Assembly: GCA_013816405.1 (NCBI GenBank)
Contig: JACDEL010000005.1
Location: 3,210-67,209, forward strand
DNA length: 64,000 nucleotides
Direction of reading: 5' to 3'
Source: Chloroflexota bacterium
GTDB lineage: Bacteria > Chloroflexota > Limnocylindria > QHBO01
A program made the translations under genes and the position numbers. The notes under the pieces are model-generated. The model did not search any database, was not told the origin of the DNA, and worked only from the letters and a program-made list of their open reading frames with translations. Of this stretch, positions 3,066 to 31,079 are shown piece by piece. Positions within the stretch are counted from its first letter, which is position 1, and each line of letters opens with the position of its first letter.

Positions 3066-3517
3066 GCAGGGGCTCTAACTTGACGGCCGCCCGCCCACGA
3101 CGAGCGGCATGGCGATCGACTACCGGATCCGCTACGCGTTCGCCGTGACGCCACCCGCCGAGCTCATCGCCTACGGCGGCGCGGCCGACGTCCTCTCGAA
3201 CCTCCTCTTGGAGATCGACCCCGAGCATCCCGCGCTCTGGGAGTTCGCGACCTTCCTCGGAACGCTCGGCGCTCCTTGAGCTGCTCGTTCCGCCAGGGCG
3301 GTGGCTGACCGAGCCAGCGGCATCGAGCGGATGGTTGACGGGTCGCGTTCGTCGTCGAGGAGTCGGCGCGCTAGGCGGTTGGGTGAGGGGAGGACACCGA
3401 GGTGGCGGCATCCGAGTCCGCGGAGCGCGCAGTAGCCGTAGGGGCGTCGGCTTCCGATCGGAAACCTCTTGCAGGGCGGCCAAACTTCCTGATAGGATCG
3501 TTACAGGAGTTGTAACG

Positions 3518-8727: not shown

Positions 8728-10362
8728 CTAAGCAACCATGCACAGGCCAGCGTAAGGAGCAAAGAACGGCTTGGGATGTGGAGGTAGGACGAGCGTCACC
8801 CGCTGCCGCGCCCGGCTCATCGAAACGTAATGAACCCGCCTAAGTCGTCTCATGCCGTCAGGATCCCACTGATCCGAATCATCGGAAAGATGGACCAGCA
8901 GCACTTCGTCCATCTCCCGACCCTTCACTTGGTAGACGTTCATCAATGAAATGGGCGCTTTCGGCCATGTGATCTCGTCGACCCATGCCACGCTGCGCCG
9001 TGCCTGCGCAAGTCGCGTCACCGCGGCGGCGATGCTGCGGTCTACAGGGCGCCCGCGCAGGCCAAGCGTCTGGCCTCTGAAATCCCGAGTTCCAAGCTCC
9101 CACAGCTGACGAGGGCGGCCCCGGAACAGCCTCCGCCAAAACGATTCAGCCCGACCAAGGAACGCTTCCAACGGTTCGCCGGCGAGCGCGCGGAACGCAT
9201 CTCGTTCGGCCTCGAGAAGTGTGATCAACCCCGGCTCAAGGAGCTCTCTGTCCCGCACGAGACCGAAGGCCAGCTCGGGGGGAGTTCCTCGGTAGCACGA
9301 GGTGACAAAGACTCCCAGGGCAATCAAGAACTCGTCCCAGTCCCCGTCGCCAACCACGAATCGTGCACACGCTGCAATTGCGAGCTGCGCCTCACCTGCT
9401 GCTCCGGACAGGCCGATGATCTCGTGCTCCATCTCCTCCGCGCGAAGACGTTCGGCGAAGTCGTTTACGCTCCTGTTGGTTGCGAGGAAAACTCCCAGCT
9501 GTGATGCGCCTCCGCGTTGCGCTTCGCGAATGAGGTCGACAAGGGCGTCGAACCCGTCTTCGGAGGCACTGTACTGAACGATGCGAAGTCGGTCGTTGCG
9601 GCACGCGTCCGCTATGGCGTCGCTGCCGTAGTCGCGCTCGCGGATCGCAGCTGCAGCGCGGGGAATTACGTTCGACGGGTCCCGGCGAGAGTCGTAGCCC
9701 AGGTCGTACACCGTCGCACCAGACGCTCGGTAGTCGGCGATGCGCCGTGCGATGGTTGGATCCGTCCAATCGAAGATCACCTGGTCGGCATCGGCCAGGC
9801 AGATCAGCTGAGTCTCCCCGGCCAGCTCCTCCAGCAGCGCGGCGGCTGGTGCCGTGGTGTCCTGAAACTCGTCGCAGATCACTGCCGCGTATCGCTCTCG
9901 ATAGCTATTGGCCAGCCAGGGTGCATTGCGCAGGAGCTCCAGCGCTGCAGGCACGATGGCATCGAAGGTCAGCGCTCCAGGAGCAGCCAAGCCGAGCTTC
10001 TCTTCTTCTCGAGTCAGGATTGCCAGCGGTTCCAGCGAACCACCGGCGAACCGCCGAAAGCCGTTAAGCAAAGTCATCGCGAAAGCGTGGAACGTGGAAA
10101 TCTCTATCCGCGTTCCGAGTTCGCCGGCGAGTGCGTCCGGTGCTCTTTTCGCTAGCTCGGTCGTCGCGGAACGCGAAAACGTTAGGAAGAGGACTCGCTT
10201 GGGCGGCGCCGGCGCTTGACCTTCGAGGATCCGGCGCGCCATGAGCAATGCCAAAGCAGTCTTGCCCGTTCCAGGTCCTCCCAATATCAGAACGCGCGGC
10301 TCATCTGCTTCGTATGCAGGGCGCTGCGACGGAGTCAGATCGCCAGGCGTTACCGTGCTCAT
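8728..10362 (-). CDS. gajB: Gabija GajB, UvrD/PcrA-like SF1 helicase
   Basis: Walker A is GGPGTGKTALAL, the DExx box is CDEFQDT, and the C-terminal motifs are VYQVKGREMDEVLLV and VSMSRARQRVTLV. ATG 10362 (MSTVTPGD) overlaps the gajA stop (ATGA at 10359-10362). Confidence 0.8.
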   Translation of the reverse strand: MSTVTPGDLTPSQRPAYEADEPRVLILGGPGTGKTALALLMARRILEGQAPAPPKRVLFLTFSRSATTELAKRAPDALAGELGTRIEISTFHAFAMTLLNGFRRFAGGSLEPLAILTREEEKLGLAAPGALTFDAIVPAALELLRNAPWLANSYRERYAAVICDEFQDTTAPAAALLEELAGETQLICLADADQVIFDWTDPTIARRIADYRASGATVYDLGYDSRRDPSNVIPRAAAAIRERDYGSDAIADACRNDRLRIVQYSASEDGFDALVDLIREAQRGGASQLGVFLATNRSVNDFAERLRAEEMEHEIIGLSGAAGEAQLAIAACARFVVGDGDWDEFLIALGVFVTSCYRGTPPELAFGLVRDRELLEPGLITLLEAERDAFRALAGEPLEAFLGRAESFWRRLFRGRPRQLWELGTRDFRGQTLGLRGRPVDRSIAAAVTRLAQARRSVAWVDEITWPKAPISLMNVYQVKGREMDEVLLVHLSDDSDQWDPDGMRRLRRVHYVSMSRARQRVTLVLPPHPKPFFAPYAGLCMVA

Positions 10363-12110
10363 AGTTCGACAAGGCCCGCCGAGCGAGCCACGACGATTTC
10401 CCGTACGCGGCCCAGCGCACTGACCGCCTTCGTTGGCAGATGCGCGTCGCCAAGCTCCCAAATGAAACTGGGATGCAGCGAGCCAGGTCGGTCATGAAGG
10501 GTCCTTGCAAGTGCGCGCCTCAGCCCAGTGCTCGGCAGCGCGTCCCAGTTGGTTGGGAGGGCGAGATCGCCGAAGGCGAGCTGTAGCTCACTGAAGACTC
10601 GGATCAGTTCAGTGTCCGCGACGCCATCGAGCAGGGCATCCTCTAGTGCCATGCGCGAGGGGAGGCGGACGACCACGTCAGCCCCTGCAAGGCAGTCCTG
10701 AACAACCGCGTCCGTCGCGGCCGGCGCTCCGGTGTCGTTATCGAGCAGGATGACCGTGAAGATCCCCAGCTCCCTCCCGGCGCGCGCCACTTTGACGGCC
10801 TCTCCGTCGCCCTGGGCCTCGACGAATGTGATCCCAGCCGCATCGAACGATCTGATGCGGCCCAGCGCAACCGCGCGCTCTGCGAGTGCGGAGTAAGCCA
10901 TTCGATCGTGGTGCCCCTCAACGATGACGACGGCGCTTGAGTTGTATGCCTCGACGAGGGTCGACGTCAGGTACCTGGCGGAGATGCGCTCTCTGCGGCT
11001 TGCGGGACGCCGGCCGCGGGCCGCGCGACGAACACCACCCTCTCGGTAGAGTCGGACGATCTCTTCGGTGGCGAAGGCAGAGGCAACGCCAGGCGCATGC
11101 GTTGCCACGACTAACTGGCCAGCGGTCCGGCGTAGCTCCCCACAGAGGTGCCTTGCCAAGAACGGATCGAACTCCCCGCCGAAGTCGTCTATTGCGACGA
11201 TTGCACCGCCCCCAGCGGCTGCCACCGCAAGGAGCGTCGCTGTGCGGAGGGCGGCCAGCAATGTGGCCCCCTGCCGCGCAGCGGGCAAGTGCTCAGGGGA
11301 GTCAAGCAACGTAATGGCCGCCGCGAGGGAGCGCAAAAGCCCGGATGGAGCGCCGCCGTCAGGGAGAAAGCGAACCAGTTCCATCGCGTCTGTGGCGTCG
11401 TCGAAGCGCCGCACAGCTCGCAGCGGCTCGAGAATCGCCTGAAGCGCTCCCGCAACGCGCGCCTGGGAGGAAAAGTCAGCCGCAGCAGCCTCTACAGCGG
11501 TCATGAAGCGGTCGACCGCTTCTCCGAAAGGCTCGCCGGTCTGGACGTCGATGAGGCGTCTCAGTTCTCCGCGTCCGGCAAGGTCCAGCGGTCGCGTGCT
11601 GAGCCCTCGTTGCCAAAAGAAGGAGATCAGAGATCGCTCGCTCGCACTCGCGCGAGGGAAACTGGAGCGAGCCGGATCAGCGAATTTCGGGTAGTACACC
11701 TTCTCGCTTGGTTGGCCATCCTCGATGGCCAATCGGTATCCAAAGCGCACGATCGACTCGTGTCTGTCCGCATCAGGTGCGGTTCCGGCCGGCAGGGCAG
11801 TAACAAGGCGCTCGTCGCGGCGGTCCCAAAACTCCAGGTGGTTGAAGAGCGCGCTCCGCACCTCATCCGCCAGATCGCCGACGGTCACTTCTACTACAGC
11901 CGGCAGACTGGGGTCGAATCCGTGGAGGTCGAGTTCGTTCCCCGGCCGACCACGGAGCGAATCTGGGTCTAGCGTGCGGATCAAGGCCTCGATGAGGTCC
12001 GACCTACCGGCGCCGGGCTCACCGACGAGCGCCGCATGAGCCCTTAGCGGCGTCTCAAACACCGCGAACCCGCGGAAGTTCTCGATCTTGATGTGGCGGA
12101 TAGCTGCCAT
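10359..12110 (-). CDS. gajA: Gabija GajA, OLD-family ABC-ATPase + Toprim nuclease
   Basis: MAAIRHIKIENFRGF, Walker A GEPGAGRSDLIEAL, Walker B AIVAIDDFGGEFD, and Toprim VIVEGHHDRMAY ... ILLDNDTG. At 583 aa and directly followed by the UvrD-like gene, this is the Gabija architecture. Confidence 0.85.
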   Translation of the reverse strand: MAAIRHIKIENFRGFAVFETPLRAHAALVGEPGAGRSDLIEALIRTLDPDSLRGRPGNELDLHGFDPSLPAVVEVTVGDLADEVRSALFNHLEFWDRRDERLVTALPAGTAPDADRHESIVRFGYRLAIEDGQPSEKVYYPKFADPARSSFPRASASERSLISFFWQRGLSTRPLDLAGRGELRRLIDVQTGEPFGEAVDRFMTAVEAAAADFSSQARVAGALQAILEPLRAVRRFDDATDAMELVRFLPDGGAPSGLLRSLAAAITLLDSPEHLPAARQGATLLAALRTATLLAVAAAGGGAIVAIDDFGGEFDPFLARHLCGELRRTAGQLVVATHAPGVASAFATEEIVRLYREGGVRRAARGRRPASRRERISARYLTSTLVEAYNSSAVVIVEGHHDRMAYSALAERAVALGRIRSFDAAGITFVEAQGDGEAVKVARAGRELGIFTVILLDNDTGAPAATDAVVQDCLAGADVVVRLPSRMALEDALLDGVADTELIRVFSELQLAFGDLALPTNWDALPSTGLRRALARTLHDRPGSLHPSFIWELGDAHLPTKAVSALGRVREIVVARSAGLVEL

Positions 12111-12324
12111 TGCTGCCTCGGACCGGGGTTGCGCTCGAAGGGGAGCCTAGCGGCCGATCAGACTCAGGTGCAATATCTCTAATCCCTCGTTGAGCGCGGA
12201 CGACCTCCAGCGGCTGGCAACCGCGGGTTGGGAGCCAAGGTCGCGGGCGCGCTGCACGGAATGCTTGTGCAACGCTTATGGACATGCTAACGTTATCGCA
12301 TATGCAAGCATCAAGGGCACGCAC

Positions 12325-13602
12325 GTGAGTCCACAACTGCAACTCCTGCCGCCAGTGCAGCCCGAGCTAGGGCTGTATTTTCGGCCAGGCAGGAATGACC
12401 ACGTCGTTCTTCAACAGCTGCTAGTGGAGGGACGAGCCCCCACGGGCCTCGTGTTCGAAGCGCGCCTCGGAATGCGTCACGAGGATCTTTGGCAGGCCGC
12501 GGTAGATGCCGGCGTGGACGCCGTCTTGGATACGAACTCCCAAGAGTTGTGGGCGCCGGCCGAAGTCCACCTGAGCGGGGTGAACGACATTCCATGGTCT
12601 TTCGCGGGGGCCGCTGGCGAGCCTCAACTCCGAGGCGATGTGGGCGACGTTCTGGTCGGAAGCATCGCCACCTACATCAAGGACCACGGCTTCACGGCCG
12701 TCCTCGTTCCGACGCACTACCTTCGGGGCCCAGAGGATTCGTATCTGGCGGTTGACATCTCCCTCGCGAAGCGCCTGCGACAACAGCTCGACTTGCGTGG
12801 TCTGGCTGACGCCCGGCTCTATTACCCGCTGGCCATGCCGGCCGCCGCACTCCGGGATTCGCACGCGCGAGAAGTCCTTGTAGACGCCCTCAAGGGTTTG
12901 GATCTGGACGCAATATGGCTGCGCCTTCATCCCTTTGGGACTAACTCATCTGGCCCAGTCGCCCTGCGCCGGTATGCGCTAATCGCTCACCACCTGCACC
13001 CACTGAATCTACCGCTTGTCGCGGAACGGACTGGGACGGTAGGCGTGGCGCTTCTCGCTATCAATGCAGTTAGCGGAATCGAATGTGGGGTGACCCTGGG
13101 CGAGCGATTCGATGCAGCTCGGTTGACTCGTCCGGGTGGGCGTGGAGAACCGTATTCGCACCCGCCACTGGTCTACCTCGAGGCAATCGGCCAGTTCGCT
13201 ACGAGAGCTGAAGCTAGAGAGTTGCTGTCGAGGCGACGTATCAGGCCGGCCCTTGGATGCCCTGACCCCGGATGCTGCCGCGGCGGGCCAGACGATATGG
13301 TTCGCAATCCTCGACGGCATGGGGTGGTGCAGCGCATCCGAGAGGTGCGGGACGTCGCCGCGACGCCGCCACACCGACGGGCACGTGAGTACCTCGACTC
13401 GGTGCTCCGGAGAAGGACAGATGTCGCGATCCGCCTAGGTCCAGCGCATCCACTAATAGAGAAGGCTCGACACCGGCTCGATTCCTGGCACGGAACCCTC
13501 ACGGCACTTCTTGACGAACGGGGTGCCTGGCCAGCGCCGCAGGCGGCGACTGGGCAGCGCGTTGGACGCCGCGTGCCCATGCGCCAGCCCCGATCACTAT
13601 GA
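12325..13602 (+). CDS. Hypothetical protein (~425 aa), unknown fold; C-terminal Cys cluster
   Basis: ORF 12190..13602. I prefer GTG 12325 (VSPQLQLLPPVQ...) because 12270-12320 is AT-richer and contains the palindrome GCATATGC, which looks like promoter DNA. The alternating hydrophobic and charged pattern suggests an alpha/beta fold. There is a GCPDPGCCRGGPDDMVRNPRRH cluster. Its stop overlaps the next start (ATGA at 13599-13602). Confidence 0.6.
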   Translation: MSPQLQLLPPVQPELGLYFRPGRNDHVVLQQLLVEGRAPTGLVFEARLGMRHEDLWQAAVDAGVDAVLDTNSQELWAPAEVHLSGVNDIPWSFAGAAGEPQLRGDVGDVLVGSIATYIKDHGFTAVLVPTHYLRGPEDSYLAVDISLAKRLRQQLDLRGLADARLYYPLAMPAAALRDSHAREVLVDALKGLDLDAIWLRLHPFGTNSSGPVALRRYALIAHHLHPLNLPLVAERTGTVGVALLAINAVSGIECGVTLGERFDAARLTRPGGRGEPYSHPPLVYLEAIGQFATRAEARELLSRRRIRPALGCPDPGCCRGGPDDMVRNPRRHGVVQRIREVRDVAATPPHRRAREYLDSVLRRRTDVAIRLGPAHPLIEKARHRLDSWHGTLTALLDERGAWPAPQAATGQRVGRRVPMRQPRSL

Positions 13603-13964
13603 GCTCAGCGCCTAATGGTGGAGGACGGATGCCTACTGCACTTGCTGCACGACTTGATTCAATCCAGGGGAAAGGTGGGATCAACGCACGTGAGGTAGCC
13701 GATCTGCTGGGAGCCAGCCCTGCGGCAGTCTCGAGGTGGCGTCGCGGCAGAATGCCGGAGCAAGATCGTCTGCGGCTCTTGCTCGACCTCGATTGGCTGG
13801 TTCGCCAACTTGCCGACTTCTACGAGCCGGACGAGGCGCGGCTCTGGCTATTCGCTCGTCATCCGCTCCTCCAAGGTGATCGACCATTTGACCGGATCAA
13901 GCAAGGCCAGATGGAGGATGTACTGACGCTCATCGATCAGCTTGGATCCGGAGCGGTCGTCTAG
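13599..13964 (+). CDS. Xre-family antitoxin with DUF2384 domain (MbcA/ParS-like)
   Basis: The HTH is INAREVADLLGASPAAVSRWRRGR. The C-terminal WLFARHPLLQGDRPFDRIKQGQMEDVLTLIDQLGSG is typical of DUF2384. It is followed by a RES-domain gene. Confidence 0.8.
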   Translation: MSSAPNGGGRMPTALAARLDSIQGKGGINAREVADLLGASPAAVSRWRRGRMPEQDRLRLLLDLDWLVRQLADFYEPDEARLWLFARHPLLQGDRPFDRIKQGQMEDVLTLIDQLGSGAVV

Positions 13965-13975
13965 CGTAGTGCGCG

Positions 13976-14515
13976 ATGGAGTTCCGACCCGATCCCATAA
14001 TCGCGGAGGCCCTTTGGAAGCTACCGACTACCTCCGTCCCGGACACGGTATGGAAACACACCTTCGTCCGCCAATCCCCGACAACCCCCAACGTGCGGGG
14101 CGCTAGGTGGAACCCGCGCGGCGTTCCTGCGATCTATTTGGCTACGGACCGGAAGACTGCTCTCGCTGAGGGCCGCTATCTCGCCGGACAGCAGCCTCAG
14201 GCGATCAAGAAGGATCGGCAGATTCACGCGCTGAGGATCGATGGCCTGAAGAACGTGCTCGATCTTCGCGACCGCCGGACCCTGCGAGCTCTCGGAGTGT
14301 CAGAGACCGAGCTGGAATCTCCGGACCATGGCGCATGCCAACTCATCGGCGGTACCGCCGAATGGGCCGGTTACGACGCCATGCTCGTTCCATCCGCCCG
14401 AGCTGAAGGCGCCAATCTCGTGGTCTTTGAGCGTAAGACTGGAGAGACATTCGAAATGAGCGTCATTGGATCGGAGGCCATTGAGCCAGACGAGGGCCGG
14501 ACGGCGCCTGAATAG
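13976..14515 (+). CDS. RES-domain toxin (MbcT/ParT-like NAD-targeting enzyme)
   Basis: The R-E-S triad is present in context: GARWNPRGVPAIYLATDRKTALAEG ... YDAMLVPSARAEGANLVVF. Confidence 0.85.
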   Translation: MEFRPDPIIAEALWKLPTTSVPDTVWKHTFVRQSPTTPNVRGARWNPRGVPAIYLATDRKTALAEGRYLAGQQPQAIKKDRQIHALRIDGLKNVLDLRDRRTLRALGVSETELESPDHGACQLIGGTAEWAGYDAMLVPSARAEGANLVVFERKTGETFEMSVIGSEAIEPDEGRTAPE

Positions 14516-14934
14516 GTGGGTCCCCGCGGGCCCGAGCGCGACCTGACTGTGAGTTAGGACGTCAGGCGGTTCACCCGACGCCGGCAACCAGGTGTTCCGC
14601 CATGGACTCGACTGTTGGAAGCGACCTGAGTCGAAGTCAGATGGTCGCGTCGTTCGGAAGCCCGTCTCGAACGAAGATCTGCTTTTCTCGAGTGTCCCGT
14701 CGGCGCCCTACCTGCCGCGGCGGCGGCTCTCGCCACGCGAAGTTGCTAGGGGCAACCCCCCTTGTCCTAAAACCACTCGCATGAGTGATCTGCCGCGGCA
14801 GGGGCGCGGCACGGGAGGTATGGGCGGGACTGATCGCCTGTCAAGGCGACGGCATGACCTCGGTGCACTGCCTAGCTCCTCCCCGACCGAGCGATAGGGC
14901 GACCTCGTACACTCGGGCCGAGAGGGAGTCGCCC

Positions 14935-15726
14935 ATGCCACCGGCCGGTCGCGCATTCGATTTGGGGCAGCGCAAGCGCGGGGAGATCATCGAGGTCACG
15001 CTGCGCGGCAGCGCCGCCAACGTCCTGCTGGTCGACTCAACCAACAAGCGCAACTTCGAAGCCGGCCGCCGAACGAGTTACACCGGCGGCTTAGTCAAGC
15101 GCTCCCCACACCGTATGGCGATCCCACGGTCTGGCCATTGGTACGTGCTGGTGACCATGGACGGGCTCCGCGGGAGGACGGACGCTGCGGTACGCGTCCT
15201 GCCTGGACCGCTGCCACCCGCCCGGCCCTCCTACGCCGGCTCAGCGCTGGGTCCGATCCGCCAGGCGGCCGATGAGTACGTCGAGGTGGCCGAAGAGGCG
15301 GCGCCTGACAGCAAGCCCTACGACGTCTTCATCTGTCACGCCCACGACGACAAGGACGAGGTGGTGCGGCCTCTAGCCCACGCGTTGCGCGATGAGAATT
15401 TGGCGGTCTGGTATGACGAATTCGAACTGAGCATCGGGGCCAACCTACGCCGCAAGATCGATGAGGGACTCGTCCGCTCCCGCTTCGGGGTAGTCGTCCT
15501 GTCGCCGGCGTTCTTCGGCAAGGGCTGGAAGCAGTACGAACTGGACGGGCTCGTCACCAAGGAGGTCGCCGGCGGCGCGCAGATGATCCTGCCGGTCTGG
15601 CACAACGTCGGTCAGGCAGACGTAATGGGCTACAGCCCCACCTTGGCGGGCAAGCTGGCACGCAGCACCGCCGAGTACAGCATCGAGCAGATCGCCTCCG
15701 AAATCGCTGAAGTGGCCCGCGCATAA
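14935..15726 (+). CDS. DUF1883-TIR two-domain protein
   Basis: ORF 14785..15726. ATG 14935 has GAGAGGGAG at 14921-14929. The N-terminus FDLGQRKRGEIIEVTLRGSAANVLLVDSTNKRNFEAGRRTSYTGGLVKRSPHRMAIPRSGHWYVLVTMDG is DUF1883-like. The C-terminus YDVFICHAHDDKDEVVRPLAHALRDENLAVWYDEFELSIGANLRRKIDEGL...VVVLSPAFFGKGWKQYELDGL is a TIR domain with the catalytic Glu context. Confidence 0.85.
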   Translation: MPPAGRAFDLGQRKRGEIIEVTLRGSAANVLLVDSTNKRNFEAGRRTSYTGGLVKRSPHRMAIPRSGHWYVLVTMDGLRGRTDAAVRVLPGPLPPARPSYAGSALGPIRQAADEYVEVAEEAAPDSKPYDVFICHAHDDKDEVVRPLAHALRDENLAVWYDEFELSIGANLRRKIDEGLVRSRFGVVVLSPAFFGKGWKQYELDGLVTKEVAGGAQMILPVWHNVGQADVMGYSPTLAGKLARSTAEYSIEQIASEIAEVARA

Positions 15727-15816
15727 CCATTGTCGAAGTGGCGTTCATCGGCGAGATGGCCGTCGCACGTCCTCGATCAGAGCTAAGCGAAGTCACGAGG
15801 GACACGCCGCCTGGCT

Positions 15817-16647
15817 CTATTTCCCCGTAGCTGAGTCGGCCACCAAAGCTCGCCACGGGGCGATCCGCGCCGCGCATTCGGGTTCGTCGAACGCCTCAGG
15901 GATCGCGACTGCTTCGATCGCTTGGGTAGCGAACCGAAGGGCGGTCCGCCAGTGCGGGTCATCGAGGATGAAAGATGGATAACACAACGCCTCGACGGTC
16001 CCGCCGGACTCTGGATTGATGGCTTCACCGCGGCTCGTCACCGCCGCGGCGACGGCACTCATGGCAAGCATGGCTCTGGATCGCAGGTCTCCATCAACCG
16101 GCGGCCCCGGCCGTCGCTCGAGGTTCGGTGGCAGAGCACGGACACGTGCGGCGTCGAGCGTGGCAGCCTGATCGAGGACGGCTTCGACTGCTTGGCCATG
16201 CGGACCCCACATTCGCCAGCGGGGCAGCTTGGCCACCACCGTGTAGGCATCGCATACGGGCCATGCCGGCTTGCCGCCGCGGATCGCCCAGCGCGTCCCC
16301 TCAAGTGCTGTGACTTGCCAGATCGACTCTCCAGGTCGAACCATCACCCGCTCCGGACTTGGATGGAAGCTGAGCCCCTCGCGCTCCCAGCTCGGCACGA
16401 TCCCCCACCGACCCGAATAGACGTTGCGCCGCTGGGACTCGTCTTCGACCCGCATCCCAATTGCCAGCTGGCGGGGCGGTGGCATCATCGCGCGGATGTC
16501 GAGCGCTTCATTCGGGCCGTCAAACAGGCCAGGCGCCTCAAGGCCCATCATCGCGTACGCCGATGACTGCACCCGGTCCGAAACGAAGTAGGCGCCGGCG
16601 GAGTCAGGCAACGGCGGCACGTTACGTCGCGGCAGCATTCGGATCAT
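15817..16647 (-). CDS. Hypothetical protein (276 aa)
   Basis: It is the longest ORF in this interval and is not low-complexity. It lies 78 bp downstream of the DUF4062 gene on the same strand. I recognise no motif. Confidence 0.5.
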   Translation of the reverse strand: MIRMLPRRNVPPLPDSAGAYFVSDRVQSSAYAMMGLEAPGLFDGPNEALDIRAMMPPPRQLAIGMRVEDESQRRNVYSGRWGIVPSWEREGLSFHPSPERVMVRPGESIWQVTALEGTRWAIRGGKPAWPVCDAYTVVAKLPRWRMWGPHGQAVEAVLDQAATLDAARVRALPPNLERRPGPPVDGDLRSRAMLAMSAVAAAVTSRGEAINPESGGTVEALCYPSFILDDPHWRTALRFATQAIEAVAIPEAFDEPECAARIAPWRALVADSATGK

Positions 16648-16724
16648 CAGAGCATCACGCTACGGCTGGCAGCGCTCCTCTGGCATGACCCAATGGTCCC
16701 CAACGGATGGGCTCGTGCCCGCGA

Positions 16725-17822
16725 TCACCCAGTTTTGCTAGGCGTGCGCAGGCGTAGCCGCAGCCGCGCGACGATCTCTTCGGCAATTCCAGCTGCCGCT
16801 CGAGCGAGGGATGAGGTTGCAATTGCGGAGTCGGGCTCCAAGTGCAGCGGTCCCGAGGCTCGGCCCATGAATGGGTATGTCCACGAGGTCGGGCTAGTGC
16901 GCTCCGCCAGCGACTCGATCCTGCTCAACGCGATCCCGACTGCGACTGTATCGCTCGCGATGAGATCCAAGCTGGCAACGAGGCGGAGGTCATCGGCGAT
17001 CATCGAGCGGAAGACGCCTTCGTCGTAGTCAGTAGCGCCGTGTTCGCTGGGGAGCTGCCGCCAGACGGTGACCGTACGGTCGACAGTGACGCGCAGGCCA
17101 CGCTCGTCGTGAGCAGCTTGTCGGCCGAGCGCGACGGCGACCGCCCCCTCGTCGATGCTCCGTTCGAGCGGCTCGGACTCGCTGATCAACCCGTGCTCTC
17201 GAGCACTACGCGCAAGCCGGCCCGCCAGCGGTTCTAGGTCGATGGCTCGCAGCCGGGACGTCGGGCCGATCGGAACCACGTGCGTGTCGAGAACGACGCC
17301 GGTCGTACTGAGAAACGAGCTTCCCGCCTCGCGCCAAGGAACGATGACCGGGTCTGCTAGGGCCTGGGGGATCAACGGCTGCAGTAACGACCGGGCAGCC
17401 TCCAGTGCCGGCTTCAACTTCCCAAGCAGCTCCGGCACAGAGTCGAAAGAGTCTCGGAAGACGCCATACGCATACGCCTCGACTTCGGCGATGAAGTCTT
17501 GCTGACGCGGCTCCGGAGTACCGCCGCGTCGACGGAAGACGACGATCGGCTTGCCGAGAGTCCGGGCTACCTGCCATTCCTCGGCGGTCGGAGCAAGACC
17601 GGTGTCCGGCAAAGGCTCGCCATAGTGCTCGCCGAGGAGTAGCAGGTAGATGTCGGAGCTGCGTACCAGGTCCACGCACACCGCTCGTGAGGGCACAGAT
17701 TGGGCGGGCTCATCCTCAAAGCGGACCGGCTCATGACCGAGTGCGGCGATCAGGGGCGCGGCCGCATCACGAGCATCATCCAGTCCTTGCCGAACCGAGC
17801 TAATCATCACGCGCAGCGTCAC
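16725..17822 (-). CDS. DUF4062-domain protein (TIR/nucleoside-deoxyribosyltransferase-like N-terminus) with an unknown C-terminal domain
   Basis: MTLRVMISSVRQGLDDARDAAAPLIAALGHEPVRFEDEPAQSVPSRAVCVDLVRSSDIYLLLLGEHYGEP...TAEEWQVARTLGKPIVVF follows the DUF4062 pattern (VFISS..DL..eR......lGh.pv..E..........c...v...D.yi.i.G.rYG). Confidence 0.7.
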   Translation of the reverse strand: MTLRVMISSVRQGLDDARDAAAPLIAALGHEPVRFEDEPAQSVPSRAVCVDLVRSSDIYLLLLGEHYGEPLPDTGLAPTAEEWQVARTLGKPIVVFRRRGGTPEPRQQDFIAEVEAYAYGVFRDSFDSVPELLGKLKPALEAARSLLQPLIPQALADPVIVPWREAGSSFLSTTGVVLDTHVVPIGPTSRLRAIDLEPLAGRLARSAREHGLISESEPLERSIDEGAVAVALGRQAAHDERGLRVTVDRTVTVWRQLPSEHGATDYDEGVFRSMIADDLRLVASLDLIASDTVAVGIALSRIESLAERTSPTSWTYPFMGRASGPLHLEPDSAIATSSLARAAAGIAEEIVARLRLRLRTPSKTG

Positions 17823-17851
17823 CCGGTCATCGTGCCACCTTCGCCCGTAGC

Positions 17852-18736
17852 ATGAGCGACACGCCAGCTAGCCTTTTGACCGTTGCCAAGGCGATCGAGG
17901 TCGCGGCCGGCCCGGCCGAGGGTTCCCGCATCGCCGCGGTTGCCCTCCGCGAGGTGGCGAGCGTCTTGGCGGGCATCCAGTCTGCGACCGCGGAGCCGCC
18001 TGACACCGTCGAAGATCTCCACGTACAGGCCGCGGCGCTCCAAGCGGCGACTGAGCAGCTTGCCCGACTGAGCGCCGCCGTCGGGTACTGGAGCCCCCCT
18101 ATGACTGCGAGTGCCTGGGAGCGCCTCTGGCCGACACTCCTCTCCGAGCACGCCTCAACCCGTACCCATGGGATGGTGAGCGAACTCGCCGCCTACCCGG
18201 CTAGCCTGGCCGCGTACGCCTTCGGGATTGGTGCCGTTGCGGCCGGTCGATACGAACGCGTCGCGACATTGCTCAGCACGCCGATACCGTCGGACAACCG
18301 ACCTTGGCGACCGCTGATCGAGGTGGTGAGTCCTTACCTCCTGGGTGACCGTGGCGCGGTTCAGTTGCCCGGAGCGACGAGCCGCATCTGGCCATTCAGC
18401 GACCATGTGCACTCGGTGGCGCGCCCTTGGTTTGCCGACTTGGTGCCCGACGACGCTGACTTCGAGCGACAGTTCGACCGGTTCGAGACGCTGTCTGCCT
18501 TAGCGCGCTACTGGCTCGACGGGCCGCCACGCGCCGACGCGTGGGTCTACCTCGGTAGGTTGCGCCGACACGGCCGGTACCTTGACGACGCGACCGTCAA
18601 CCTGCTCACTGAACCCGGCAGGCAGTCACCGGCGACTGAGCTGCTGCGAACGCTCGGTTGCCCAGAGGACGAAATGTCGACGACCCTAGAAGACTTCCAC
18701 GCTGCGGCTCGAAAGGTGTTGGCGCAGGTCTTCTGA
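17852..18736 (+). CDS. Hypothetical protein (294 aa)
   Basis: ATG-initiated ORF, divergent from the DUF4062 gene with only a 29-bp gap. No recognised motif. A hairpin CACCAGG-ggcgt-CCTGGTG lies at 18745-18763, after the stop. Confidence 0.5.
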   Translation: MSDTPASLLTVAKAIEVAAGPAEGSRIAAVALREVASVLAGIQSATAEPPDTVEDLHVQAAALQAATEQLARLSAAVGYWSPPMTASAWERLWPTLLSEHASTRTHGMVSELAAYPASLAAYAFGIGAVAAGRYERVATLLSTPIPSDNRPWRPLIEVVSPYLLGDRGAVQLPGATSRIWPFSDHVHSVARPWFADLVPDDADFERQFDRFETLSALARYWLDGPPRADAWVYLGRLRRHGRYLDDATVNLLTEPGRQSPATELLRTLGCPEDEMSTTLEDFHAAARKVLAQVF

Positions 18737-19512: not shown

Positions 19513-20076
19513 TCAAGACCCAGCGCGGCGCCGCTCGTCATCGGGGTCCTTCAGCCAAATTCGCCCCTCGCGACGAAGGAAGCGACCTCGATACGTGGCG
19601 TTTCCGACGCGGGCGCTCACTTGGCCGCCGCGTAATTCGTGGCCGCTCCTCGGTGGCTCGAATAGGTTGCGTTCGCGGATGCGGCCGGCAATGTCGTTGG
19701 CCGTCAGCGGTTCGTCCGCGTCCAGCAGCACCCGGATGATTGCATCATGTAGGCGCCGGGGTGCCTCTGACGCGCTCCCCCTCGGCCGGTCCAATCCTGT
19801 CTTCCCTCGCTGTCGGCGGCCGGCTGGCTGAGTCCGCCTCGGGGTTGGGCGCTGAGTCGCTACCTCGGTGGGCGAGTCTGGCACACGAGCGGACTCTGCC
19901 GGGTCGCGCTCGCCGGCCCTGGGCTGCGTGGCGGCGGACGACTGCAGCCGCTCCAAGAGCTGGTTAGTCCGTTCGCCAATTGCGATCAGGCGATCGAGGC
20001 GTTCGGCGATCGCATCCATCTCAGCTCTTGCAATTGGGTCAGACCCGCGTCCGAAACGCAGAAATGGCAACCTCAT
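19513..20076 (-). CDS. Coiled-coil plus C-terminal winged-helix (HARE-HTH-like) protein
   Basis: N-terminal helix (AEMDAIAERLDRLIAIGERTNQLLERLQ), a Pro/Arg-rich linker, then LHDAIIRVLLDADEPLTANDIAGRIRERNLF...GGQVSARVGNATYRGRFLRREGRIWLKD, which resembles HARE-HTH. The ATG overlaps the upstream stop (ATGA at 20073-20076). Confidence 0.5.
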   Translation of the reverse strand: MRLPFLRFGRGSDPIARAEMDAIAERLDRLIAIGERTNQLLERLQSSAATQPRAGERDPAESARVPDSPTEVATQRPTPRRTQPAGRRQRGKTGLDRPRGSASEAPRRLHDAIIRVLLDADEPLTANDIAGRIRERNLFEPPRSGHELRGGQVSARVGNATYRGRFLRREGRIWLKDPDDERRRAGS

Positions 20077-20987
20077 GAGTCAGCAGCATACGCGGGCGTT
20101 GGCCATCCGGCCCCTCGATAAACCGGACAGCCGACGACTGCCGCCAAGGAGTCCCACTGCTCCAGAAGTGCCGCGGCGTAGATCATCAGTTCAGAAGGAA
20201 CCTGCCCGCCGAAACCAAGGTCCGGGATCCGCAGCCCTTCTACGGCCTCCCCGCCGGCAGGAAGCTTCCCGTAGAAACGATGGGTAGCGGCATTGCGCAA
20301 CTTGCCGGCATGGCGGATTAGGGGTTGGTCGTACCAGGCACGAAGTGCCGCTGGGAATGGTTCGTCTGCTGGGTCCATTTCGAACAACCGCTTCGCGTCG
20401 CGTTTGCCGTGGAACCCAGCCACCTCATCCAGCGCGGAATACCCGGCGGCCAAAATGCCTTCGAAGTGGGCTTGGATCGGGATGGGAACCTCGCGCAACG
20501 CTTCAGGCGGAGTAGCTGCCATCCAGCGCCGGAGCTGGTCGAAGTGGTAATGCGCGATCTCGACCTTGCGACACGCGGCGTTCAGCATCTCCTCGGGGTC
20601 CCTTGTCGCCGATGAGCTTCGGAGTTGGTACACCCACGCGGGGCGGCGGCTTCCTGAGACCTGGACACCGATCACGACTCGCTCGTAATCGGGTGCCTCG
20701 TAGTCGTCGAGCCTCGCCAGCAAGTTGGCGGCATGGGGGCCCGGCAACAGCACCAACTCGCCAGGTATGTCGCGATCCCCGTCTTCGTCGAACTTAAGCA
20801 CGCCGGATGGCGGAGCGGTAGCCCGGGCTACCGCGCCGCTGATCCGCTGGACCCCCGCCTCATCAAGGGCCGCGGACGCACCACTGCGGTGGAGCCGAAG
20901 GAGTCCATAGACGAACAGCGCCTCACCGTCGTCGCCAATGCTGACCGGCTCGGGTCGCGGTGACGTATCCGCGGAGATGTCCTCCAT
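20073..20987 (-). CDS. Fusion of a gamma-glutamylcyclotransferase-like (AIG2/GGACT) domain with a HEPN-like domain
   Basis: The N-terminus is ALFVYGLLRL...GELVLLPGPHAANLLARLDDYEAPDYERVVIGVQVSGSRRPAWVYQL (GGACT pattern: FVYGTL ... G.l ... LD.yE ... Y.R ... AwvY). The C-terminus has IAHYHFDQL ... AGKLRNAATHRFY, an R-x4-H HEPN signature. Confidence 0.65.
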   Translation of the reverse strand: MEDISADTSPRPEPVSIGDDGEALFVYGLLRLHRSGASAALDEAGVQRISGAVARATAPPSGVLKFDEDGDRDIPGELVLLPGPHAANLLARLDDYEAPDYERVVIGVQVSGSRRPAWVYQLRSSSATRDPEEMLNAACRKVEIAHYHFDQLRRWMAATPPEALREVPIPIQAHFEGILAAGYSALDEVAGFHGKRDAKRLFEMDPADEPFPAALRAWYDQPLIRHAGKLRNAATHRFYGKLPAGGEAVEGLRIPDLGFGGQVPSELMIYAAALLEQWDSLAAVVGCPVYRGAGWPTPAYAADS

Positions 20988-21037: not shown

Positions 21038-21298
21038 TCAGCTGTTCTCCCCCGCCTGGAGGCCGACGCCTACGAGTTGAGCGTCCGCCATTAGGGCGGC
21101 GACAGCATCAGATCCCAGCGGGCTAAGGCACGCTGCCAGAGCTTCACGAGCGCTACGGCCAAGACCCATCTCCGGCGCACCGCTAATTTCGGCCACCGCC
21201 AACCAACGGCCGTCGAAGTTGCGCAGGCGCACGTCGACGTAGAAGTCGAGCTGCGACGCACCGATGCGGAAGTTCACGCTCATCAGCGTAGGTCGCAC
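21038..21298 (-). CDS. Small HicB/UPF0150-like protein
   Basis: DFYVDVRLRNFDGRWLAVAEISGAPEMGLGRSAREALAACLSPLG resembles the HicB N-terminal fold pattern (dG.w.A.v.e.pg....G.t.eEAl). The start is GTG 21298 or ATG 21283. Confidence 0.4.
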   Translation of the reverse strand: MRPTLMSVNFRIGASQLDFYVDVRLRNFDGRWLAVAEISGAPEMGLGRSAREALAACLSPLGSDAVAALMADAQLVGVGLQAGENS

Positions 21299-21369: not shown

Positions 21370-22098
21370 TTAATCCTCGGGCCACCAGTCGCGGGTCAAC
21401 GGAAGCTGACCGAGTTGGATGCGGATACTCCTCCACTTCGGCAGGTGCTCGTCGAGCAATGCCATGAATGGCGCGTCATGACGCCGATGGAGCAGGTGCA
21501 GCAACTCGTGGACGACCAGGTACTCGGCAGCTGACTTGGGCTTTTTTGCCAGCTCGCTGTTGAACCACAGTCGCCGGGTCGCCGGATTGCACGACGCCCA
21601 CTTGGTCTTCATTCGCCGCACTCGCCAATCAGCCACCTCGACCCCGAGCTTCGGTTGCCACGCGGCAACCAGAGCCGGAATGAACTGCTTGAGCTGCTCT
21701 CGATACCAACCCTCCAGGATCTCGGCGCGCTTCTCGCGCGTGGCTCCCGACCGACACGTCAATTCAAGGTAGCGGCCCGCAATGCGGACCCTCGGACGGG
21801 CGGGCGCCTCAACCACACGAAGAAGGTAGCGGCGACCCAAGTAGTAGTGCGTTTCGCCGCTCACGAAGTCACGGCGTGACTCGCGGGCTTGTTCGCGGAA
21901 GCGGGCCTGCTGGCGACGGATCCATCCAAGCTTTCGCACCACGGCTACGCGGACCGCGTCAGCTGACAACCCCTCGGGCGCAGCCACCCGCACGCGGCCG
22001 TCCGGTGGGTAGACGCCGACGTGCAGGTTCTTGATGGGCTTCCGGACGACGTGAACCGGCAAACCGCGAACAGTCTCGAGTGCCGACTCAGTACTCAT
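21370..22098 (-). CDS. YgjP-like (DUF45/M48-type) zinc metallopeptidase, a common type I R-M accessory gene
   Basis: KTKWASCNPATRRLWFNSELAKKP and EYLVVHELLHLLHRRHDAPFMALLDEHLPKW (HExxH). ATG 22098 (MSTESALE) overlaps the hsdR 3' end by 11 nt. Confidence 0.8.
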   Translation of the reverse strand: MSTESALETVRGLPVHVVRKPIKNLHVGVYPPDGRVRVAAPEGLSADAVRVAVVRKLGWIRRQQARFREQARESRRDFVSGETHYYLGRRYLLRVVEAPARPRVRIAGRYLELTCRSGATREKRAEILEGWYREQLKQFIPALVAAWQPKLGVEVADWRVRRMKTKWASCNPATRRLWFNSELAKKPKSAAEYLVVHELLHLLHRRHDAPFMALLDEHLPKWRSIRIQLGQLPLTRDWWPED

Positions 22099-25000
22099 GC
22101 TGGGTAGTAACAAGTGTGAGCATGCGGTCGAGACGTTCGCCTTCGGACTCGGACGTCGCCTCATCGGCCCCGACCGCCGCTGGGGCGGCGAGCAAGGCCT
22201 CAGCGATAGCGATGCGGACGCGGCGTGTCTTCATGAGGTTGGCGCGCCAGCCATCCTGACGGCTGCGCTGGACCGCCGCGTCGACGGCAACCGCAAGTTC
22301 GGCATCGCCGCCAAGGTTGTCGTACAACGCCTGCTGCGCCGGGGTGTCGATCGCATCTGGGTACGCCGCCGTACTCGGTCCCGCTTGCGCCTCCTGGACG
22401 AGCTTGACGATCTGCTCGAGGTACTGCTCGTACTCGATCGCCTCGCGGCGGCGCTGTTCGATCAGGGCATCGAGGAGCTCGGACATCCGCTCGTAGTACT
22501 TCGGATTGATCGGGGACTCGTCGATGATCAGACGTCGGACGTTGTTCTCGATGGTCTCGGCCACCGCTTCTCGATCGGCTCGAATGCCGCCCGGGAGTTC
22601 TTCGACGAATGCTGGTCCTCGCTCGGCGATGAGCTGCATGAGGGATAGGTCGTCAAAGGCGCTGACCTGCTGACTCGGATCAGCCTGGATGTATGTATCG
22701 ATCAGGTGGCGCATGGCGGGCTCGTACATCTTCATGTCGATGTAGTCGCCGCTGGCCAGCTTTACCTCGCCGCGGACCTTCTCGAAGTGGTCGACATCGG
22801 CCTTGATCTTGGCGGCCTCCTCGGTGGTGTAGCCAGCAGCTTCCAGTTCACTCGCGATGTCGGCGTAGGCCCGGATGAGGGAGGAGACGAGCTTGTATAG
22901 CGATAGCCGCTTCGGCTCGTTGTCTTTGAGCTGCTCTGCGTTGCCAGCTTCGGCTGCGCAGAAGTAGCGCATGTAGTCGGCGGACTCGCGGGGTAGTGCG
23001 ACCGGCTCGCACAGCGCTCGGACCGCCTCCAGCTTCTCGTCGAGTCGCTCATGGGCCTTGGTCAGCCGATCCTCGAGCAGGCCGATGACGTCCTCGCGGT
23101 CGAAGGCATCAAAGGCTGCACCGGTGTAGTCCTTCACCGCACCCTCGAGGCTGCGGAACAAGTCCTTGTAGTCGACGATGTAGCCGTATTCCTTGTCGTC
23201 GGTGTCGAGGCGGTTCACGCGGCAGACCGCCTGGAACAGGCCGTGGTCACGCATCTGCTTGTCGATGTACAGGTAGGTTGCTGGCGGCGCGTCAAAGCCG
23301 GTGAGCAACATGTCCACCACGATCAGCAGCTTCATCTGACCGGGCTCGTGGAGGAATTTCTCCTTGACCTGCCTTTCGAACTCCTCCACCCGGTTCACCG
23401 CCATGTCGGCATCCTCATCGAACCAGTCCGCGAGCATGCGTCGGTAAATCTGGTACTGCTCGAGCCGCTCGGTTTCACCCTCCCCACTCTCCTCACCCTT
23501 GATCTGGGCGACGTTCGGCTCGTACGAAGTGACGATGGCGCACTTGCCGTGGAGCCCGGTTTTCTCGAACAACTCGTAGAACTTGCAGGCCTGATAGATG
23601 CTGCCAGCGACGAGAAGCGCATTGCCGCGCCCGCTGCTCAGGCGATCACGCACCTCCATGTCCATCAGAATGTCGCTCGAGATCTGCGCCAGCCGGGAGT
23701 GGCTAGACAGGACCTCCTGCATCGTGCCCCAGCGGCGTTTCAGTTGGGCCTTCGCGAGATCGGTCAGGCCGCGCGTCTTCGCCTCGAACCACTGGTCGAC
23801 CCGCTCCGGTGATGCCAGCCGCTGCTCGATGTTGCGCGCCTCGTACCGGAGGTCGAGCACGACCCCGTCCGCGACGGCTTCGTCGTACTTGTACGGATGG
23901 ATGATCGGGCCGAATACCTCGACACTGCGCTTCTTGTCCGCCTTGAGCAGCGGAGTGCCGGTAAAGCCGATAAAGGTGGCGCCCGGCAACAGCTCGTTCA
24001 TCGCCTCATGGAGAACGTTGGACTGCGACCGATGGCATTCGTCGACGAACACGACAAGTTCGCCCTTGGGCTCGAAATCCGCGGGAAGCGCGCGCTTCAA
24101 GTCAGCGATGAAGTCGGCGACCTCGGCCTCGGTAGCGTCGCCCTCGCGGCCGTGAAACTTCTGGATCAAGGTGCAGATCAGCCATCTCTGGTCCTCATTG
24201 AGGACCTTCACCAAGTCGGAGCCGCTTGAGGTGCGGTGGATCTCTTCCTCGACGCCGAAGAAAACATCTTCGACCTGCTGATCGAGTTCGGTCCGATCGG
24301 TGACGATCAGCACTCGACCGTCACGGACGTTCGCGCGGATCCACTTCGCCAGCCACACCATGATCAGGCTCTTGCCTGAACCTTGGGTGTGCCAAATGAT
24401 CCCGCCCTCGCGGCGCTGGACGAACTGCTGAGCGGCCCGGACGCCGAAGTACTGGTTGTGGCGTGCGATCTTCTTGGTGCCGGCGTCGAAGACGATGAAG
24501 TCGTGGATCATCTCCAACAGCCGGCCCTTCTCGCACAGCTGCAGAAGCGCGCGGTCCAGCGGACCCTCGACTGAGCTGGGCTCCTTCCAGCTCAGGTAGT
24601 ACTTCTCTGGGGTCTGGATCACGCCGTAACGCAGGCCCTCGGTGTCGTTGCCGGCAATGACGAGCTGCACGGTCGAAAAGAAGGGCTGGATGAAGTCGCG
24701 CTTCTGGTTGTCGAGGTTCTGACGGATCCCTTCGGAGACCGAGACGACAGACCGCTTGAGCTCCAGGACCGCCACGGCGATACCGTTGATGTAGAGCACG
24801 ACATCAGGGCGCTTGCCGTGCGCGCGCGCATCGGCGGCGCCGACAGTGACCTCCTCTGCCACGGCTAATTGGTTGCGCTCCGGATGCTCCCAGTCGATGA
24901 GGTGAACGGTTTGAGTCAGCTCGCCGACATCGGGCTTCACGTGAACGCCATAGCGAAGCAGCGAGTACACGTCGCGATTGCGGTCATACAGGCTGCGCGT

Positions 25001-25219
25001 GGCGTTGTCGGCCGCCCTGCGAAGCTGGTAGAGCGCTCGGGTGATGAGCTCTTCCTCGTAGCCCTGGTCCCGGAGGTATGGAACGAGAAGGCCCTCCTCA
25101 ATGTTGCTGTTGTTCTCCCGCTCGGCCCAATCTCCGAGATAGTCGTAGCCAAGCAGCTCGGCCAGCAACCTCACTACCCGGTTCTGGGTGCGACGCTCGA
25201 TCTGCCCGACGATGCTCAC
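22088..25219 (-). CDS. hsdR: Type I restriction enzyme R subunit
   Basis: 1043 aa. It has an N-terminal nuclease region, the SF2 motor (HTQGSGKSLIMVWLA, VVFVDECHRSQ, FTGTPL) and a C-terminal helical domain. It overlaps hsdS by 4 nt. Confidence 0.95.
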   Translation of the reverse strand: MSIVGQIERRTQNRVVRLLAELLGYDYLGDWAERENNSNIEEGLLVPYLRDQGYEEELITRALYQLRRAADNATRSLYDRNRDVYSLLRYGVHVKPDVGELTQTVHLIDWEHPERNQLAVAEEVTVGAADARAHGKRPDVVLYINGIAVAVLELKRSVVSVSEGIRQNLDNQKRDFIQPFFSTVQLVIAGNDTEGLRYGVIQTPEKYYLSWKEPSSVEGPLDRALLQLCEKGRLLEMIHDFIVFDAGTKKIARHNQYFGVRAAQQFVQRREGGIIWHTQGSGKSLIMVWLAKWIRANVRDGRVLIVTDRTELDQQVEDVFFGVEEEIHRTSSGSDLVKVLNEDQRWLICTLIQKFHGREGDATEAEVADFIADLKRALPADFEPKGELVVFVDECHRSQSNVLHEAMNELLPGATFIGFTGTPLLKADKKRSVEVFGPIIHPYKYDEAVADGVVLDLRYEARNIEQRLASPERVDQWFEAKTRGLTDLAKAQLKRRWGTMQEVLSSHSRLAQISSDILMDMEVRDRLSSGRGNALLVAGSIYQACKFYELFEKTGLHGKCAIVTSYEPNVAQIKGEESGEGETERLEQYQIYRRMLADWFDEDADMAVNRVEEFERQVKEKFLHEPGQMKLLIVVDMLLTGFDAPPATYLYIDKQMRDHGLFQAVCRVNRLDTDDKEYGYIVDYKDLFRSLEGAVKDYTGAAFDAFDREDVIGLLEDRLTKAHERLDEKLEAVRALCEPVALPRESADYMRYFCAAEAGNAEQLKDNEPKRLSLYKLVSSLIRAYADIASELEAAGYTTEEAAKIKADVDHFEKVRGEVKLASGDYIDMKMYEPAMRHLIDTYIQADPSQQVSAFDDLSLMQLIAERGPAFVEELPGGIRADREAVAETIENNVRRLIIDESPINPKYYERMSELLDALIEQRRREAIEYEQYLEQIVKLVQEAQAGPSTAAYPDAIDTPAQQALYDNLGGDAELAVAVDAAVQRSRQDGWRANLMKTRRVRIAIAEALLAAPAAVGADEATSESEGERLDRMLTLVTTQHEY

Positions 25220-30909: not shown

Positions 30910-31079
30910 CCCTTCCTCTCCGCGGGGGGCGCTTGTTCGAGCTAGCTCCCGACGCCAAACAACGTCAAGCCAACCCTCCGATTGAAGCGCCACATCGCAG
31001 TATCTATCGCGCTACTACACGTCTACTGTCGCAGTTGGTCGGAAAGTCCCATGGAGAATGCAGTCGGCCCTGGGTGACC

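Follow-up and report, generated by a model that had tools for sequence, protein, structure and literature searches.

The interval 14935-18736 of the window (the whole analysed stretch of 64,000 nucleotides from a Chloroflexota bacterium, contig JACDEL010000005.1 of assembly GCA_013816405.1) raises the question of which of its four genes belong together. A preliminary description of this DNA had placed two genes of the TIR superfamily face to face as parts of one possible system, i.e., a DUF1883-TIR gene and a DUF4062 gene, the latter in an operon with a gene for a 276-aa protein (u276). A tightly divergent gene for a 294-aa protein (u294) had been treated as a side point. The four open reading frames (ORFs), the 29-bp gap between the starts of the DUF4062 gene and u294, and the two domain calls, which are Pfam matches, stand as described:

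14935-15726, plus strand, DUF1883-TIR gene, 263 aa, Pfam DUF1883 and TIR_2
15817-16647, minus strand, u276 gene, 276 aa, an ORF with no Pfam, NCBIfam or PADLOC match
16725-17822, minus strand, DUF4062 (NIR) gene, 365 aa, Pfam PF13271 at residues 4-86
17823-17851, divergent intergenic spacer of 29 bp, from the DUF4062 start to the u294 start
17852-18736, plus strand, u294 gene, 294 aa, no Pfam match, corresponding to the C-terminal half of PADLOC PDC-S65

The grouping of these genes turned out differently. The interval carries three modules of defence-island cargo, independent of one another, namely the DUF4062 gene with u294, the DUF1883-TIR gene, and u276. The conserved unit is the DUF4062 gene with u294; the gene mentioned in passing is therefore the actual partner of DUF4062. 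Conservation of the neighbors fails around the TIR gene and for u276, but it holds for u294 beside DUF4062.

In order to determine this linkage, neighborhoods were gathered for DUF4062 homologues at 33-79% identity from the encoding contigs, a one-genome-per-species scan and a metagenome scan, and were searched with profiles of both families. A divergent u294 homologue, with 29-53 bp between its start and that of the DUF4062 gene, was present in the window, in a Chloroflexota metagenome-assembled genome (L004), and in L006, L009, L017, L029, L030/31/33 and L055. In the window, where the DUF4062 gene begins with a GTG at 17822 and u294 with an ATG at 17852, the spacer measures 29 bp and becomes 44 bp if an internal ATG (MISSV...), used by many homologues, is the DUF4062 start; the equivalent spacers in nine other loci measure 34-53 bp. 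The adjacency is found in six deep lineages and is retained down to ~25-30% identity. Pairwise identities of the DUF4062 proteins and of the u294 proteins co-vary across loci (r = 0.93), and in the DUF4062 tree u294 occupies deep branches with scattered losses. When sampled from the side of u294, both stand-alone u294-like proteins (P0068 and P0114) adjoin a DUF4062 gene. The first of them (locus L055) is divergent and the second (L056) convergent, within an integrase-bearing element, where the DUF4062 protein matches the family profile in its N-terminal domain only and has a diverged or different C-terminal part. In L016, which represents the same chromosomal hotspot as the window (u187, u86, the restriction-modification (RM) genes and an Exo_endo_phos remnant at 14625-14699 are in common), the DUF4062-u294 pair as a whole has the opposite orientation with respect to u187, u86 and the RM genes.

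All four genes of the interval are under purifying selection (ratio of nonsynonymous to synonymous substitution rates, dN/dS, 0.13-0.26) and therefore all of them, u276 included, are real genes; the rate of u294 equals that of the DUF4062 enzyme. The 29-bp spacer must hold or overlap the promoters and ribosome sites of both divergent genes; from this the preliminary description had proposed that the two may be under coordinated or mutually exclusive control. A scan of 17823-17851 for promoters, terminators and palindromes found nothing, i.e., no sigma-70 consensus and no palindrome. The sequence is present only in soil metagenomes, and all runs holding it are of metagenomic DNA.

Other genes accompany members of the DUF4062 family in certain loci. 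The relatives nearest to the window, L006 and L017, have a Hypoth_Ymh gene (PF09509) that follows u294 on the same strand after 6-12 bp (4334-5056 and 4355-5080, respectively), and in L010 such a gene (3014-3754) lies ~2.2 kb upstream of DUF4062. The window has no Hypoth_Ymh gene; possibly this is a third component that is optional. Three loci without u294 carry a gene of ~137 aa on the same strand, 47-72 bp upstream of DUF4062 (L010 5492-5908, L028 4551-4964, and L032 1090-1503), which may be an alternative partner. Neither this gene nor the other alternative neighbors of the loci lacking u294 showed any Pfam match.

The DUF4062 protein belongs to the NIR family by its Pfam match, its fold and its catalytic glutamate. 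The match to PF13271 (residues 4-86) reaches 64.2 bits against a gathering cutoff of 24.7, and 47 full-length homologues of ~360 aa each were found. In the AlphaFold2 (AF2) model (mean predicted local distance difference test score, pLDDT, 91.8), the N-terminal domain (approximately residues 1-145) adopts a flavodoxin fold like that of TIR domains and nucleoside deoxyribosyltransferases, as the preliminary description had proposed. The Foldseek relatives are MilB (TM-score, TMt, 0.67) and BcmB (0.73-0.75), both CMP N-glycosidases, DNPH1 (0.62-0.65) and the SARM1 TIR domain (0.61), and TIR-STING and TIR-APAZ proteins were matched to this domain as well. The C-terminal auxiliary domain (AUX; approximately residues 177-359 within the C-terminal ~215 residues) is alpha/beta in the same model. 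Whole-chain Foldseek matches to SelB, IF2 and TIR-APAZ, with a root mean square deviation >20 Å, are uninformative on this domain.

Three preprints of 2026 established DUF4062, renamed NIR, as a TIR-like NAD+ hydrolase (NADase) in abortive-infection defence, with glutamate-dependent depletion of NAD+ in Swarozyc, Evangelion, Avs2-NIR, Vulcan and Vesta (10.64898/2026.05.01.722283, 10.64898/2026.06.25.731849, 10.64898/2026.09.04.749371). The reaction of the family converts NAD+ to ADP-ribose (ADPR) and nicotinamide, and the catalytic glutamates are E97 of KpSwz, E108 of PsAvs2 and E98 of Vulcan. The family profile of the window protein matches KpSwz (PDB 10wc, E 3e-7), with profile positions 4-148 on KpSwz residues 7-159. 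In this alignment E82 (motif PTAEEW) falls on the catalytic E97 of KpSwz (the E97A position of the structure sequence), and it is invariant across 45 family members. E82 is thus the predicted catalytic residue, and the protein is a predicted NAD+ hydrolase effector. NADase activity and phage defence have been shown for other DUF4062 proteins, and from these we infer the activity of the protein encoded in the window.

For u294, the earlier label of an unknown protein is right in that there is no Pfam match. It fails in that PADLOC aligns the protein to positions 327-586 of the 592 positions of the PDC-S65 model (E 8e-31) and, by a second PDC-S65 model, at E 1.4e-22. From these alignments, u294 is recognised as the C-terminal helical domain of PDC-S65 occurring as a protein of its own. 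Reciprocally, the u294 profile recovers full-length PDC-S65 proteins (~580 aa, SIR2_2 plus the helical domain), and in the PDC-S65 members P0080 and P0100 the whole model is covered and SIR2_2 is present. PDC-S65 itself was rejected as the identity of u294, which has no SIR2_2 and covers model positions 327-586 only. A profile search with u294 gave 1067 representative clusters, composed of stand-alone proteins of ~290 aa or of longer proteins with the domain at the C-terminus, and a plasmid search with u294 gave no match.

The longer proteins are informative about the possible role of the domain. Among 150 listed matches of the u294 profile, 62 longer proteins were scanned for fusions. The heads preceding the u294-like domain are SIR2_2 (32 proteins), TIR (4-5) and caspase (2), with single cases of SEFIR, Schlafen/AlbA_2, HNH and PilZ. 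In the fused proteins, which run to hundreds, the domain comes right after the effector, and no further domain that could serve as a sensor was recognised. A C-terminal module that is combined with many interchangeable toxic heads would typically be one for sensing or regulation. The architectures behind this reasoning are those of the single-protein defence systems DSR2, Avs and Vulcan. By this analogy, u294 is a predicted sensor or adaptor.

The AF2 model of u294 is all-helical (pLDDT 89.4). Foldseek against PDB and BFVD returned nothing significant, the best match being to ARM/HEAT-like repeat proteins at E 0.15. The profile search against PDB sequences gave weak matches to adenylate kinase over the N-terminal helices (best E 9e-4), and these were taken as spurious.

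Taken together, we consider it probable, with some reserve, that the DUF4062-u294 pair is an abortive-infection module of two genes that acts by depleting NAD+. In such a module the DUF4062 enzyme would be the effector, hydrolysing NAD+ through E82 to ADPR and nicotinamide, and would be kept inactive until infection. u294 would recognise a phage component or relay its recognition, and would then switch on the NADase in trans through the alpha/beta AUX of the enzyme. The part of u294 as sensor or activator, and its interaction with the DUF4062 protein, are what we infer from the linkage and the fusions. A broader form of this proposal is more tentative and seems to us possible rather than probable. 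It holds that the u294-like domain is a widespread, structurally novel phage-sensing module driving at least seven kinds of heads, and that in the window it acts in trans on a DUF4062 NADase for which the AUX is the docking domain.

Several observations weigh against the two-gene proposal. First, among the non-redundant full-length loci of the DUF4062 family, roughly one in two has no u294 (L010, L011, L014, L020, L024, L027, L028, L032 and L037 and, among plasmids, those of Rhodococcus opacus B4 and Streptomyces sp. ADI95-16); because of this the enzyme may work alone and u294 may be dispensable. Second, none of the 62 longer proteins scanned is a fusion of DUF4062 to the u294-like domain. 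Third, u294 has no recognisable fold relative and no catalytic motif, so that its role as a "sensor" rests on the analogy of fusion architectures, and no experimental paper on PDC-S65, a computational candidate only, was found in the literature. Finally, the DUF1883-TIR gene and u276 are both found in the window and in L015 and are both absent from L016, and they may form a cassette of their own.

The explanation that survives best beside the two-gene module is that the DUF4062 gene suffices by itself, as a single-gene system like Swarozyc or Evangelion, and that the C-terminal domain of its product senses the phage. In that case u294 would be an unneeded accessory, and it might be a negative regulator limiting autoimmunity or a separate "headless" defence protein travelling along. 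The loci without u294 speak for it, as do those that combine an open DUF4062 ORF with a decayed u294 (a truncated copy in L001-3, a frameshifted one in L016). The same applies to the AUX of Swarozyc, which binds the phage portal, to that of Evangelion, which is required for defence, and to the tightly linked partner VstB of Vesta, which is dispensable (10.64898/2026.09.04.749371). Against it stand the linkage, which is retained down to ~25-30% identity and through a change of orientation, purifying selection on u294 that matches the rate seen for the enzyme, and the position of the domain in fused proteins directly behind effectors that have no other recognised sensor candidate. We regard the single-gene explanation as rather unlikely, with the two-gene module remaining the preferred one.

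A further explanation, which appears improbable, resembles a toxin-antitoxin pair. Here u294 would be the antidote to a constitutively active DUF4062 NADase, and the divergent promoter region would be autoregulated. The compact two-gene cassette with its shared control region of 29-53 bp would suit such a pair, NADase toxins with immunity proteins exist, and an Xre-RES pair adjoins at 13599-14515. However, an open DUF4062 ORF persists alongside truncated or frameshifted copies of u294 and, in many loci, without any u294, which argues against u294 as an essential antitoxin and would suit a dispensable or modulatory u294, comparable to VstB in Vesta. In addition, the fusion of the u294-like domain in cis to many toxic heads fits a regulator or sensor better than a dedicated antidote.

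Compared with known systems, the two-gene module shares parts with each of several NIR or PDC-S65 proteins. Swarozyc (KpSwz; PDB 10wc, 11cq and 11cv) is a single-gene NADase of DUF4062 plus AUX, activated when the AUX binds the phage portal (10.64898/2026.05.01.722283). It has in common with the window protein an N-terminal DUF4062, a similar size (326 aa in KpSwz vs. 365 aa), a C-terminal auxiliary domain, and the location in a defence island. The similarity is confined to the N-terminal domain, however, and the core of the KpSwz AUX is of helix-turn-helix/winged-helix type, whereas the domain here is alpha/beta, of ~215 aa, in the AF2 model. Moreover, Swarozyc is one gene, whereas the family of the window usually carries a second conserved gene. 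An assignment to Swarozyc sensu stricto, which is defined by homology of the AUX, was rejected because the profile aligns over positions 4-148 only.

With PDC-S65 the likeness lies in u294, which corresponds to the C-terminal ~260 residues of both models. In PDC-S65 a SIR2 head is fused to it in a single gene product of ~580 aa, whereas here the DUF4062 head is on a separate, divergently encoded polypeptide. Vesta combines NIR with an alkaline phosphatase and Vulcan is NIR fused to HEAT repeats, and in both NAD+ is depleted upon infection (10.64898/2026.09.04.749371). Vesta resembles the pair of the window in having two genes and, on its NIR enzyme, a C-terminal domain that is likewise uncharacterised, but its partner is a phosphatase in the same operon and not a non-enzymatic helical protein on the opposite strand. 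Vesta was rejected as an identity, with no phosphatase domain in the neighbors scanned at 8.7-22.2 kb. Vulcan, which was compared with u294 by description only, likewise couples NIR to an alpha-helical (HEAT) domain, but this is fused. None of the NIR systems of the 2026 preprints (Swarozyc, Evangelion, Avs2-NIR, Vulcan and Vesta) is described with a u294-like partner, and the pairing of an NIR enzyme with a free-standing helical protein of the PDC-S65 type is not described in the literature searched.

The DUF1883-TIR protein is an independent single-gene module, and its TIR domain belongs to the AbTir/PdTIR/TcpB group. Its Pfam matches are DUF1883 (E 1.3e-19) and TIR_2 (E 1.3e-18), and the DUF1883 part matches Atu1913 (2b1y). 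A phmmer search of the TIR domain against PDB gave AbTIR over the whole domain (E 1.6e-41), and also PdTIR and TcpB/BtpA. The N-terminal regions of AbTir and TcpB differ from DUF1883. The glutamate of the motif KQYELDG, E202, which the preliminary description took as the catalytic one, aligns with AbTir E208, and W198 with AbTir W204 ("GWKQYELDG" vs. "DWTNYELDG"), so that both residues are kept. In AbTir, E208 is catalytic and the alphaC tryptophan W204 is needed for the cyclisation of ADPR (10.1101/2022.05.07.491051). The protein is predicted to make a cyclic ADPR (cADPR) isomer or to deplete NAD+.

The PADLOC model PDC-S66 (E 7e-62) aligns with the TIR part only, residues 117-261 on model positions 137-280 of 282, and leaves DUF1883 unaligned; the ThsB model (E 1e-38) also covers the TIR part only. 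A full-length match to the phage protein family phrog_9211 (E 5e-83) and 115 plasmid records with full-length homologues were found. In the plasmid contexts of Methylobacterium, Polymorphobacter and Enterobacter the neighbors are unrelated, with no DUF4062, u276 or u294 among them. In the Enterobacter cloacae plasmid pMB6956_1 (IncF; L061), the homologue is divergent to a second, different TIR gene (3202-3816 and 3983-4750), a pairing that does not occur in the other two plasmid contexts. In L015 the DUF1883-TIR gene (1458-2253) is apparently frameshifted near codon 40-44, as tblastn recovers it in two pieces and the called product has 224 aa.

In accordance with these contexts, the proposal that the TIR and DUF4062 genes make up one system did not survive, as they co-occur only in the window and in the near-identical L015, and no other DUF4062 locus has a TIR gene. 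The most specific form of it, a Thoeris-like system in which the TIR protein makes a cADPR-type signal for a receptor or effector, to be sought in DUF4062 or among the unknown proteins, is highly improbable: the adjacency in two loci, the tryptophan and glutamate for cyclic ADPR production and the ThsB-like PADLOC score favor it, but L015, at 88-93% nucleotide identity, comes from a close relative with this very island and is hence not independent evidence, the other DUF4062 loci have neither a TIR gene nor a u276 homologue beside DUF4062, the plasmid homologues of the TIR gene lack all three neighbors, and the scanned neighbors include no SLOG, Macro or other known cADPR-binding domain. Type I Thoeris was rejected similarly, as the Pfam and PADLOC scans of the ORFs at 8.7-22.2 kb revealed no ThsA gene (SLOG, SIR2 or Macro); the preliminary description had likewise seen no ThsA-like partner nearby.

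u276 is a real orphan gene that forms no conserved unit with either neighbor. It starts 77 bp past the DUF4062 stop on the same strand, and its own stop is 90 bp from that of the TIR gene. Only three close homologues exist, and the dN/dS against L015 is 0.22. A weak match to phrog_8332 (E 1.5e-6) was found, and its weak relatives are two ORFs of L010 with 30% identity, ~3 kb from the DUF4062 gene. It adjoins DUF4062 only in the window and in L015, which is a syntenic fragment, and in the loci searched it was absent beside DUF4062 or TIR homologues elsewhere. The operon suggested earlier is thus not upheld, as u276 never follows DUF4062 in other lineages.

The island that hosts the three modules is flanked by Gabija and an Xre-RES pair on one side and by a type I RM system on the other. 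The features outside the interval are:

8728-10461, minus strand, GajB, UvrD/PcrA-like helicase
10359-12110, minus strand, GajA, PADLOC E 3.6e-34, OLD-like TOPRIM domain
12190-13602, plus strand, unknown cargo ORF of 470 aa between Gabija and Xre-RES, divergent from gajA
13599-14515, plus strand, Xre-RES type II toxin-antitoxin pair (Xre/ParS-like antitoxin, 121 aa; RES-domain toxin, 179 aa)
19513-20076, minus strand, u187, possible hotspot flank gene or further cargo
20073-20987, minus strand, GGACT protein of 304 aa, with N-terminal GGACT (gamma-glutamyl cyclotransferase, AIG2-like) and a C-terminal half of unknown nature
21038-21298, minus strand, u86, possible hotspot flank gene or further cargo
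from 21370, minus strand, putative YgjP-like hydrolase ORF of 264 aa, named from the ORF listing
22088-25219, minus strand, HsdR, type I RM
25216-26496, minus strand, HsdS, type I RM
26493-28967, minus strand, HsdM, type I RM, completing the system
29086-30993, minus strand, DUF4209 protein of 635 aa

Gabija (8728-12110, minus strand) is complete. The gajA and gajB ORFs overlap by ~100 bp as listed, and therefore the start of GajB is probably further downstream. Searches of the 470-aa ORF against Pfam, NCBIfam, PADLOC and PHROGs gave no match; at its 3' end the stop codon overlaps the Xre start. RES toxins are NAD+-degrading enzymes. If the RES protein of the island degrades NAD+, then RES, TIR and DUF4062 would be three predicted NAD+-consuming genes within 4.3 kb.

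Between Xre-RES and the TIR gene, a 205-bp block (14621-14824) shows 91% identity to L016 (1141-1345), and 14625-14699 corresponds to the last 25 codons of the Exo_endo_phos gene of L016. This gene remnant marks an integration hotspot common to the window and L016, with cargo differing between relatives. On the other side, an overlap between the GGACT stop and the u187 start suggests an operon. Near DUF4062 genes, u187 and u86 are both found in L016, a fragment of u187 in L036, and a u86-like stretch immediately downstream of the DUF4062 gene of L022; these two genes may be flanks of the hotspot or more cargo.

Regarding the annotation of the island, these results set the TIR gene apart as a separate plasmid- and phage-borne single-gene module, outside any Thoeris-like system. 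As for DUF4062, its recognition as an immune NADase dates from 2026 only, and the systems described consist of a single protein or of an enzyme paired with a phosphatase. The pairing reported here links two hitherto unconnected candidate defence families, DUF4062 and the C-terminal domain of PDC-S65. It points to a likely role, that of a swappable sensor or regulator, for a domain that occurs in more than 1000 protein clusters, and it offers a tractable two-gene system for the study of how NIR NADases are switched on. If u294 indeed senses in trans and acts through the AUX, this would be the first split system of a sensor protein and an NIR effector protein, and it would provide a simple two-protein model for the activation of NADases by this class of sensors.

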